This document shows positions 705 through 968 of a stretch of DNA of 64,000 nucleotides, piece after piece. Source of the stretch: Alphaproteobacteria bacterium. GTDB lineage: Bacteria > Pseudomonadota > Alphaproteobacteria > GCA-2731375. Numbering within the stretch: the first letter of the stretch is position 1; each line of letters starts with the position of its first letter. The position numbers and the translations under genes were made by a program. Below the pieces are notes generated by a model. It was not told the DNA's origin, searched no databases, and was given only the letters and a program-made list of their open reading frames with translations. The stretch is from the NCBI GenBank assembly GCA_965232515.1, contig CBDDPY010000002.1, positions 6,048,001 to 6,112,000 on the forward strand. The letters run 5' to 3'.

Positions 705-732
705 TTGACAACGCGGCGGCTAGATGCAGTCT
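705..732 (+). promoter_or_regulatory. Putative sigma70 promoter for small transcription unit
   Basis: Perfect TTGACA at 705-710; weak -10 candidate (CAGTCT, 727-732). Confidence 0.5.
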
Positions 733-769
733 TTCCGCATCGGTGCAACAGCAGAAAGGAGGTGATCCA

Positions 770-868
770 ATGTCTGACGTTTTGGTGACGGTGAGTACTG
801 CGCCCGCGTTCGGTGGCGGATCCAACACGATGACTTGGACGACGCCTTCTCGAACGGGGATTGCATAG
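770..868 (+). CDS. Putative 32-aa small protein MSDVLVTVSTAPAFGGGSNTMTWTTPSRTGIA (or sORF within an sRNA)
   Basis: ATG directly after AGAAAGGAGGTGATCCA; candidate promoter upstream and terminator downstream; below ORF-track cutoff. Confidence 0.55.
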   Translation: MSDVLVTVSTAPAFGGGSNTMTWTTPSRTGIA

Positions 869-934
869 GCAGCACTCACTGCCGACCGGCGGTCGCCAAG
901 AACGGCCCCGGCTTCACCTAACGTGAAAAACTGC

Positions 935-968
935 GACGCCGCGCCTCCCGGTGCGGCGTTTTTCTTTT
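935..968 (+). terminator. Rho-independent terminator, possibly bidirectional
   Basis: GACGCCGCGCC-TCCC-GGTGCGGCGTT stem followed by TTTCTTTT; A5 tract at 926-930 gives a U-tract on the minus strand. Confidence 0.8.

Follow-up and report, generated by a model that had tools for sequence, protein, structure and literature searches.

Hahn et al. (2017) described rreB of Bradyrhizobium japonicum, a 165-nt small mRNA that carries a 17-nt complement of the 16S rRNA 3' end and a short open reading frame (sORF) of 14 codons with a GTG start (PMC5711450). The rreB RNA was recovered with pelleted ribosomes and co-sediments with 30S subunits; the 5' extension of the Shine-Dalgarno (SD) sequence is required for this localisation, and so are the first three bases at the 5' end of the complement (PMC5711450). 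A seed model with exposed 5' complement bases was proposed for this interaction (PMC5711450). Translation of the rreB sORF was weak in fusions and was suppressed by the extended SD, a change of the GUG to UAG lengthened the half-life of the RNA from 10 to 37 min, and 20-fold overexpression caused no growth phenotype (PMC5711450). Analogues with 16-17 nt of complementarity were reported in the Caulobacterales, Rhizobiales, Rhodobacterales (rreR, 18 aa), and Rhodospirillales, and the Azospirillum analogue starts with ATG; the function of these genes was given as unknown (PMC5711450).

A second described system is the Rfam family CC2171 (RF01867), which was first reported by Landt et al. in 2008 (via bioRxiv 10.1101/2022.01.24.477521). 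CC2171 gave a Northern signal in Methylorubrum extorquens, and the same preprint states that no condition is known to affect it (bioRxiv 10.1101/2022.01.24.477521). PMC5711450 mentions neither CC2171 nor Rfam. We consider CC2171 and the rre genes to be the same kind of element, and in the literature searched we found no paper that says so or links the two, and no later functional work on either.

A more distant parallel is the STAB-SD of Bacillus thuringiensis cryIIIA, an SD-like 5' element that binds 30S subunits without necessarily driving translation. In its Gram-positive host, which has a 5' exonuclease, it stabilises the long mRNA lying downstream. The element studied here shares an SD-like sequence near the 5' end with STAB-SD, which is a resemblance and not membership. 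It differs in having no downstream gene, and in rreB the engagement of a ribosome at the start codon shortens the life of the RNA rather than extending it.

Here we analysed an element at ~739-968 of the window, which is the whole 64,000-nt stretch of DNA under study. The element is a divergent, ATG-start, 32-codon member of the described rre/CC2171 class; its lineage or further cases with an ATG start may already appear in Fig. S1 or the supplementary tables of PMC5711450.

Layout of the locus and its 16S rRNA complement

All features lie on the plus strand. The preliminary description had listed a TTGACA, a 16S-complementary motif, an adjoining ATG, a Ser/Thr-rich sORF, a trailer, and a terminator, and all of these were read in the sequence at the positions it gave. 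In an alignment with 27 related loci, the -35-like box CTTGACA (704-710), which contains the TTGACA (705-710), coincides with a conserved CTTGC/CTTG block ahead of the element. A weak putative -10-like box, CAGTCT (727-732), lies 16 nt past the TTGACA and under the conserved CATACT of the relatives. A consensus scan of positions 500-1400 found no full sigma-70 promoter because the -10 box is poor, and the putative promoter, the weak point of the layout, leans on the TTGACA and on the alignment with relatives. We dropped the idea that the conserved promoter blocks are recognised by a heat-shock sigma factor, since they fit the alphaproteobacterial housekeeping promoter consensus equally well.

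Transcription would start at ~739-748, leaving a short 5' leader (739-752) with the sequence CAACA (746-750), which is invariant or almost so among relatives; the RF01867 consensus cAAcaAuc aligns from position 746. The leader is followed by the complement of the 16S tail, AGAAAGGAGGTGATCCA (753-769), an extended SD also denoted as the 17c region, and then by the ATG (770-772) of the sORF. The sORF occupies 770-868 including its stop codon TAG (866-868), and its product would be MSDVLVTVSTAPAFGGGSNTMTWTTPSRTGIA, in which 11 of the 32 residues are Ser or Thr (4 Ser and 7 Thr). A trailer of 66 nt (869-934) separates the stop codon from an intrinsic terminator (935-968), which was recovered by both the terminator scan and the fold and consists of an 11-pair stem with 8 G-C pairs (935-960) and the U-run TTTCTTTT (961-968). 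The gene downstream of the element is convergent, and a leader-peptide or attenuator reading was dropped for this reason. Synteny gave no information, as the genomic context shares only the upstream gene with a same-genus genome and nothing with other genera; likewise, the context of the rre class is not conserved according to Hahn et al. (PMC5711450).

The putative RNA 739-968 had a predicted folding energy of -95 kcal/mol (z = -2.61). Its minimum free energy (MFE) fold contained a 12-bp long-range helix, whose 5' arm (789-801) lies within sORF codons 7-11 and whose 3' arm (869-881) lies immediately past the stop codon, an inner stack (804-859), a 3'-UTR hairpin (886-911, with 886-895 paired to 903-911), and the terminator. 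The predicted probability of being unpaired was at least 0.9 at 756-757 and 0.5-0.6 at 755, and the GGA core was weakly paired, in line with a weak local pairing of the SD predicted at this locus.

Both 16S genes of the genome end in ...GCGGCTGGATCACCTCCTTTCT, followed by AAGG. Positions 753-769 are exactly complementary to the 17 3'-terminal bases of the 16S rRNA from both genes, so that the 17-nt complement that had been proposed from the conserved 16S 3' region also holds for all 17 tail bases of the organism's own rRNA. These 17 bases are those located 3' of the last 16S hairpin, and the 17-base tail of the B. japonicum 16S rRNA likewise lies past the last hairpin (PMC5711450). The match ends precisely at both borders without further flanking rRNA sequence, which bears out the earlier statement that the motif is not an rRNA remnant. 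The 17-mer occurs three times in the 7.39-Mb genome, i.e., at 753-769 and antisense to the two rRNA genes, which makes 753-769 its sole site outside the rRNA genes. By chance, ~9e-4 copies per genome are expected at equal base frequencies, and the next-longest 16S complement with a GGAGG core in the genome is 13 nt long. The predicted 17-bp duplex has an energy of -30.0 kcal/mol, compared with -9.2 kcal/mol for AGGAGG, and the ATG lies 7 nt downstream of the GGAGG.

Conservation in relatives and relation to rre and CC2171

The pattern AAAGGAGGTGATCCANTG was found in 27 of 61 related genomes, with one copy per genome, including 23 of 32 same-family genomes and 3 of 28 other families, each represented by one sampled genome. 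A reversed control pattern gave no matches in the same genome set. Alignment of the 27 loci showed a common order of parts, in which a promoter-like block (CTTG...CATACT) and a CAACA a few bases upstream of the motif are followed by the invariant core, ATG or GTG, a TCN codon, a variable interior, and a terminator of hairpin and U-run. The 14-nt core of the motif had 56 matches in the 61 genomes, comprising the 27 elements, the two rRNA copies of the genome itself, and 27 others. Among these others, 24 were antisense to rRNA (22 with the exact rRNA continuation and two with a variant of it, as judged by eye) and three were further elements with G or T ahead of ATG/GTG. Matches antisense to rRNA thus made up 26 of the 56. 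At every one of the 30 non-rRNA matches, the core is followed one base on by ATG or GTG and then by a TCN serine codon. The 14-nt core is invariant across families and the remainder of the element has diverged. The search for the motif in relatives that the preliminary description had suggested found the core kept at 30 non-rRNA sites. In a phylum-wide sample, the pattern was present in 33 of 401 genomes including the present one, with 32 of 114 same-class genomes (one of which, G442, is flagged as unpublished) versus none of the 286 genomes of other classes.

The element resembles rreB as a putative small free-standing RNA in which a 17-nt 16S complement, a few bases from the 5' end, is followed by a start codon and an sORF. 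At this locus, the complement spans 17 nt matching both 16S genes, the ATG at 770 lies directly 3' of it without overlap between complement and start codon, and single-stranded bases are predicted in silico at the 5' side of the complement. The rreB gene has a promoter and a terminator of its own; for the element, a terminator, a -35 box, and promoter blocks conserved in relatives are predicted, with no full sigma-70 match. In addition, both are single-copy in their genomes, and their context is not conserved outside the family. However, rreB starts with GTG and the element with ATG. The rreB complement takes in the G of the GTG, whereas the complement here covers the terminal U of the 16S rRNA and stops ahead of the ATG. 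Furthermore, the rreB sORF has 14 codons versus 32 here, the peptides show no similarity, and the RNA length is 165 nt in rreB versus a putative ~230 nt in the element. The rreR genes of the Rhodobacter/Roseobacter lineage have the same arrangement of extended SD and sORF, and we recovered them in named Rhodobacterales contigs as an 18-aa type with the peptide MSR..LE.GVGT. In contrast to the element, they start with GTG, have 18 codons, and encode an unrelated peptide.

At Rfam gathering scores, no match was found in the whole window. In permissive mode, the best match of the region 560-1000 (441 nt) was RF01867 (CC2171) with 24.8 bits (E = 0.0022, or 0.0086 genome-wide), which is below the gathering score of 75 bits; the element is not an RF01867 member by the threshold of that family. 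The Rfam search recommended in the preliminary description thus yielded a family in permissive mode and none at the gathering score. The 5' consensus of RF01867, cAAcaAucGAAAGGAGGUGAUCCAGUGUCU, aligned almost base for base with the 5' 30 nt of the element (746-775), and the consensus order CAACA-N-GAAAGGAGGUGAUCCA-RUG-UCU was present. The interior of RF01867 could not be aligned to the element. An analogue of its closing helix is predicted at 789-801/869-881, which the model did not align, and in the one same-genus sequence both arms are unchanged. The closing helix of RF01867 surrounds internal hairpins and is followed by a terminator, and parts of this kind are predicted in the fold of the element. 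Other sub-threshold Rfam matches (ctRNA_p42d, suhB/mmgR, ncS025, and others; 8-21 bits) fell on the terminator or the flanks and were taken as chance.

Of the 27 motif loci, 20 were scanned, and three of these exceeded the CC2171 gathering score at the motif (L025, 101.3 bits; L027, 90.5 bits; L002, 82.1 bits), all from same-family genomes. CC2171 was also the top permissive match of all six further loci (31.7-43.6 bits), with 31.7 bits for the same-genus copy, and a named Caulobacter contig scored 120.2 bits. The one rreR locus scanned (L054) did not reach the RF01867 gathering score. In the same-family genome G008, a CC2171-type copy (L025) occurs alongside an ATG-type copy (L199), so that the CC2171 and ATG types resemble two sister families more than a single one.

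It should be noted that the possibility of membership in an already catalogued sRNA family had been raised beforehand, and it proved apt, with CC2171 as the best, sub-threshold Rfam match and a paper dedicated to rre. The catalogued family and the rre paper remove most of the novelty, which the preliminary description itself had made dependent on such a match. Current Rfam thresholds miss the element. For annotation, it should be labelled as an rre/CC2171-type small RNA and not as a hypothetical micropeptide or a novel riboregulator.

Probable selection on the RNA and rival readings

Compared with the same-genus copy, the element showed no differences at 714-782, six in the ORF, and nine in the 66-nt trailer. 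The four same-genus substitutions in the stem of 886-911 (889, 893, 908, and 909) all preserve pairing, and one in the terminator stem at 952 changes a G-U pair to G-C. Among 20 same-family ATG-type elements (alignment A1), four of the ten pairs of the manually placed long-range helix were changed on both sides; 84% of the cells were paired, and the values were lower in shuffles and slid controls. In 13 of 15 folded elements (exceptions L001 and L023), the 5' GAAA of the motif was predicted to be unpaired, which matches the seed model proposed for rreB. The RNAalifold consensus of the 20 same-family elements paired the SD with an internal CCUCU box; this pairing is not claimed here, since its pairs never covary. 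When alifold was run on the interior under constraints, no usable consensus emerged.

The preliminary description had left open whether the peptide or only the motif and structure is conserved, and had offered a highly translated micropeptide as one reading. The six ORF differences from the same-genus copy fall on codon positions 1/2/3 as 2/1/3 and cause three amino acid changes, so that 29 of 32 residues are kept. We calculated pairwise differences at codon positions 1/2/3 for six sORF groups, which were defined by ORF length and first residues, a choice that could bias the result only towards a coding signal. The values were.308/.298/.300 for the rreR type (25 distinct sequences),.399/.412/.411 and.500/.542/.514 for the CC2171-like types of 25 aa and 24 aa,.064/.093/.013 for the rreB type, and.317/.302/.310 and.135/.171/.202 for the same-family ATG types of 25 aa and 26 aa, respectively. 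None of the six groups showed an excess at the third position, whereas the excess was fourfold in the neighbouring control gene (153-575) compared with the same-genus genome (.057/.050/.223). The peptides following the motif fall into unrelated groups, including 14 aa in Bradyrhizobium (MS..KRCHLAGIAR), 18 aa in the Rhodobacterales, 21-27 aa in the CC2171 type (MSHC...), 25-26 aa in the family of the window (MS.E.RAVTIG... and others), and 32 aa here. As read from the sequences, the C-termini shift by 2-nt indels between close relatives. Residues that appear conserved coincide with helix arms: HCH falls on CAUUGUC in the closing helix of CC2171 and AVTIG on the 5' arm in A1. No Pfam or NCBIfam match was found for the 32-aa peptide. 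The start codon is conserved, and the sORF groups lack a coding signature. Given the even differences among codon positions, the compensatory changes in the long-range helix and the 3'-UTR hairpin, and the invariant start codon, the RNA and the start codon appear to be under selection and the peptide sequence probably is not, although the signal of a functional peptide could be masked by overlapping RNA constraints.

Taken together, we are confident that the element is a unit of the rre/CC2171 class in which the 16S complement, the start codon, and the RNA fold are selected rather than the amino acids, and that a ribosome-linked regulatory or 30S-occupying RNA is likelier than a peptide gene. 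Positions ~739-968 would form a free-standing small transcription unit with an RNA of ~230 nt, in which 17 nt near the 5' end are complementary to the whole single-stranded 16S 3' tail, the start codon comes next, and the short ORF lies inside a long irregular hairpin ahead of the terminator. By analogy with rreB, the exposed 5' GAAA would seed the pairing with the 16S tail, and the resulting duplex of ~17 bp (-30 kcal/mol) would lock the RNA on free 30S subunits. With the spacer between SD and AUG paired to rRNA, initiation would be inefficient, and the start codon would still engage the ribosome and couple this engagement to RNA turnover. The 30S binding, weak translation, and ribosome-dependent decay assumed in this scheme are carried over from rreB of a single species, B. 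japonicum. With an ATG start and a start codon left outside the complement, this locus might permit somewhat more initiation than rreB, and its ORF of 32 codons instead of 14 is a further difference that could raise translation. The earlier idea of an RNA that captures 30S subunits agrees with the co-sedimentation of rreB with 30S subunits through its 5' SD extension, and it applies to this locus by analogy. A simple role as a 30S sponge seems unlikely, because overexpression of rreB had no phenotype in B. japonicum.

A more general form of this reading, which we put forward tentatively and regard as rather less likely than not to hold, is that the whole class consists of ribosome-docking non-coding RNAs, in which only the 16S complement, the start codon, and the fold are selected. 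A locked, initiation-like 30S complex might then gate the decay of its own RNA, or mark or hold a sub-pool of 30S subunits, and such RNAs might recur in the Planctomycetota, Gemmatimonadota, and Burkholderiales. The absent peptide signature together with the invariant start codon shifts the question from the role of the peptide to the role of ribosome docking, and the question of what the RNA is for belongs to the rre/CC2171 class and not to this locus.

The strongest rival is an ordinary, very strongly translated micropeptide gene, in which the 32-aa Ser/Thr-rich peptide is functional and the long SD maximises its synthesis. The start codon lies at an ideal distance, 7 nt past the GGAGG, ATG or GTG is kept at 30 of 30 non-rRNA motif sites, and an ORF of at most 35 codons follows the motif in 107 of 118 named contigs among the matches listed. 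The 29 residues kept in the same-genus copy and the translation, albeit weak, of the rreB sORF in fusions (PMC5711450) also speak for a peptide. However, the third-position excess seen in the neighbouring gene occurs in none of the sORF groups, the peptides of different lineages (14, 18, 21-27, and 32 aa) are unrelated, their C-terminal ends are moved by 2-nt indels among close relatives, their conserved residues overlie helix arms, and no Pfam or NCBIfam family matches. Furthermore, the extended SD lowers the translation of rreB rather than raising it (PMC5711450). With no codon-position signature and a suppressive SD in rreB, the highly translated micropeptide of the preliminary description is not supported, and we consider this reading improbable.

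Still less probable, and in our view very unlikely, is a conventional trans-acting base-pairing sRNA whose purine-rich 5' end targets CU-rich, anti-SD-like seeds and whose match to the 16S rRNA is incidental. The structured architecture, the predicted single-stranded 5' end, the terminator, and the listing of CC2171 as an sRNA gene in Rfam would fit such an RNA, and many alphaproteobacterial sRNAs have CU-rich seeds. Against it, the complement is exact over the 17 tail bases and ends at the borders of the free tail, the 14-nt core is invariant across families whose elements have otherwise diverged, and a start codon always adjoins it; rreB, moreover, is physically associated with the 30S subunit (PMC5711450). 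Finally, a chance similarity or an inverted remnant of an rRNA fragment has a negligible probability and is refuted by the conservation data, given the ~9e-4 copies expected per genome, the match that ends at the tail borders without rRNA flanks, and the single copy, with promoter-like block and terminator, in 27 of 61 related genomes.

RNA libraries and wider distribution

Parts of the stretch were found in 12 public sequencing runs, of which seven, from six studies, are recorded as RNA. The element or a close relative occurred in RNA-library contigs of three studies. A 970-nt contig (X1) spans 716-945 without differences, a 1164-nt contig (X2) ends at 748 and matches 748-959 with three differences and the neighbouring gene with 30, and a 180-nt contig (X6) shows 11 differences and a single gap over 750-927. 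Such contigs are assemblies from relatives, in which DNA may be present, and they do not establish a transcript, its ends, or its strand; with this reservation, the contig ends at 748-750 are suggestive, being compatible with a transcript start just upstream of the motif. The raw-read run X13, a PolyA library, had no reads on the element, which provides no test.

An exact-match scan of a named genome collection found the motif in at least 118 contigs, most of them alphaproteobacterial among the matches listed. In the 118 named contigs among the matches listed, the first base of the NTG start was G in 97, A in 17, T in 3, and C in 1, and the ORF after the motif had at most 35 codons in 107. The motif was also present in contigs labelled as Pirellulales/Planctomycetaceae, Phycisphaerae, Burkholderiales/Bordetella, Gemmatimonadota, Krumholzibacteriia, Methylomirabilis, and others, assignments that rest on metagenome-bin labels, which can be wrong. 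Similar units outside the Alphaproteobacteria would suggest an older origin or convergent evolution. The contigs with non-alphaproteobacterial labels carry an ORF of 9-26 codons, and those inspected have a strong terminator ~100-150 nt downstream.

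Two element types in one genome

Genome G008, which belongs to the same family as the window, holds two elements of the rre/CC2171 class. One of them (L025) is GTG-started and scores 101.3 bits, above the RF01867 threshold, and the other (L199) is ATG-started and reads …GATCC-G-ATG-TCG…. Because G008 carries one of each, the two types, CC2171 and ATG, look like paralogous subfamilies, neither replacing the other.

A CU-rich box, CCUCU, is kept near the end of the small ORF in ATG-type elements (columns 88-122 of A1, the alignment of 20 same-family ATG-type elements; loci L003-L024), where it reads in the peptide as ...EQPL or QRESL.... 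RNAalifold paired this box with the Shine-Dalgarno (SD) core. The pairs are invariant throughout the alignment, and since they never vary we draw no inference from this pairing. The window element contains CCUUCUC (845-851), which is unpaired with the SD in the minimum free energy (MFE) fold of that element.

Genomic surroundings of the window element

Two short dispersed repeats (594-633 and 652-690) lie just upstream of the element. About eight and about three further copies of them, respectively, are found in the genome at 87-94% identity, and several unrelated contigs from the RNA libraries match at these repeats, which look like REP-like intergenic repeats. Downstream, two minus-strand ORFs are convergent with the element, one of 109 aa (984-1313) and one of 239 aa (1333-2052), the latter beginning much as a signal peptide or a lipoprotein would. 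Neither ORF has a counterpart adjoining the element in the same-genus genome, and the upstream gene (153-575) is the only neighbour common to both same-genus genomes.

The motif on other public contigs

The published distribution of the class comprises Alphaproteobacteria only. Among the matches listed in the scan of named public contigs, the same 15-nt complement of the 16S rRNA, followed by GTG or TTG, was seen at 12 loci (L052, L086, L066, L069, L073, L068, L078, L084, L041, L126, L139, and L141) on contigs labelled, by bin labels only, as Planctomycetota, Burkholderiales, Gemmatimonadota, Krumholzibacteriia, Lujinxingiaceae, and Methylomirabilis. The ORFs that follow have 9-26 codons, and some peptides are common to pairs of loci (e.g., two Planctomycetes, two Gemmatimonadota). 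A strong terminator was found ~100-150 nt downstream at all eight loci whose downstream sequence was inspected, the first eight in the list.

On two Flavobacteriia contigs (L051, L077), the pattern precedes a reading frame 82-83 codons long whose terminal sequence, ...KVIDGPFNGF, we take to be a NusG-like KOW motif. The pattern there is probably an internal site in an ordinary gene and probably has no relation to the rre/CC2171 class.

On two Azospirillum contigs (L083, L107) and one Geminicoccaceae contig (L105), the motif is followed by ORFs of 57-60 codons. Judging from their hydrophobic, signal-peptide-like N-termini, followed by a Cys in the Azospirillum copies, the same extended SD may here precede the gene of a genuine small protein, either secreted or a lipoprotein.
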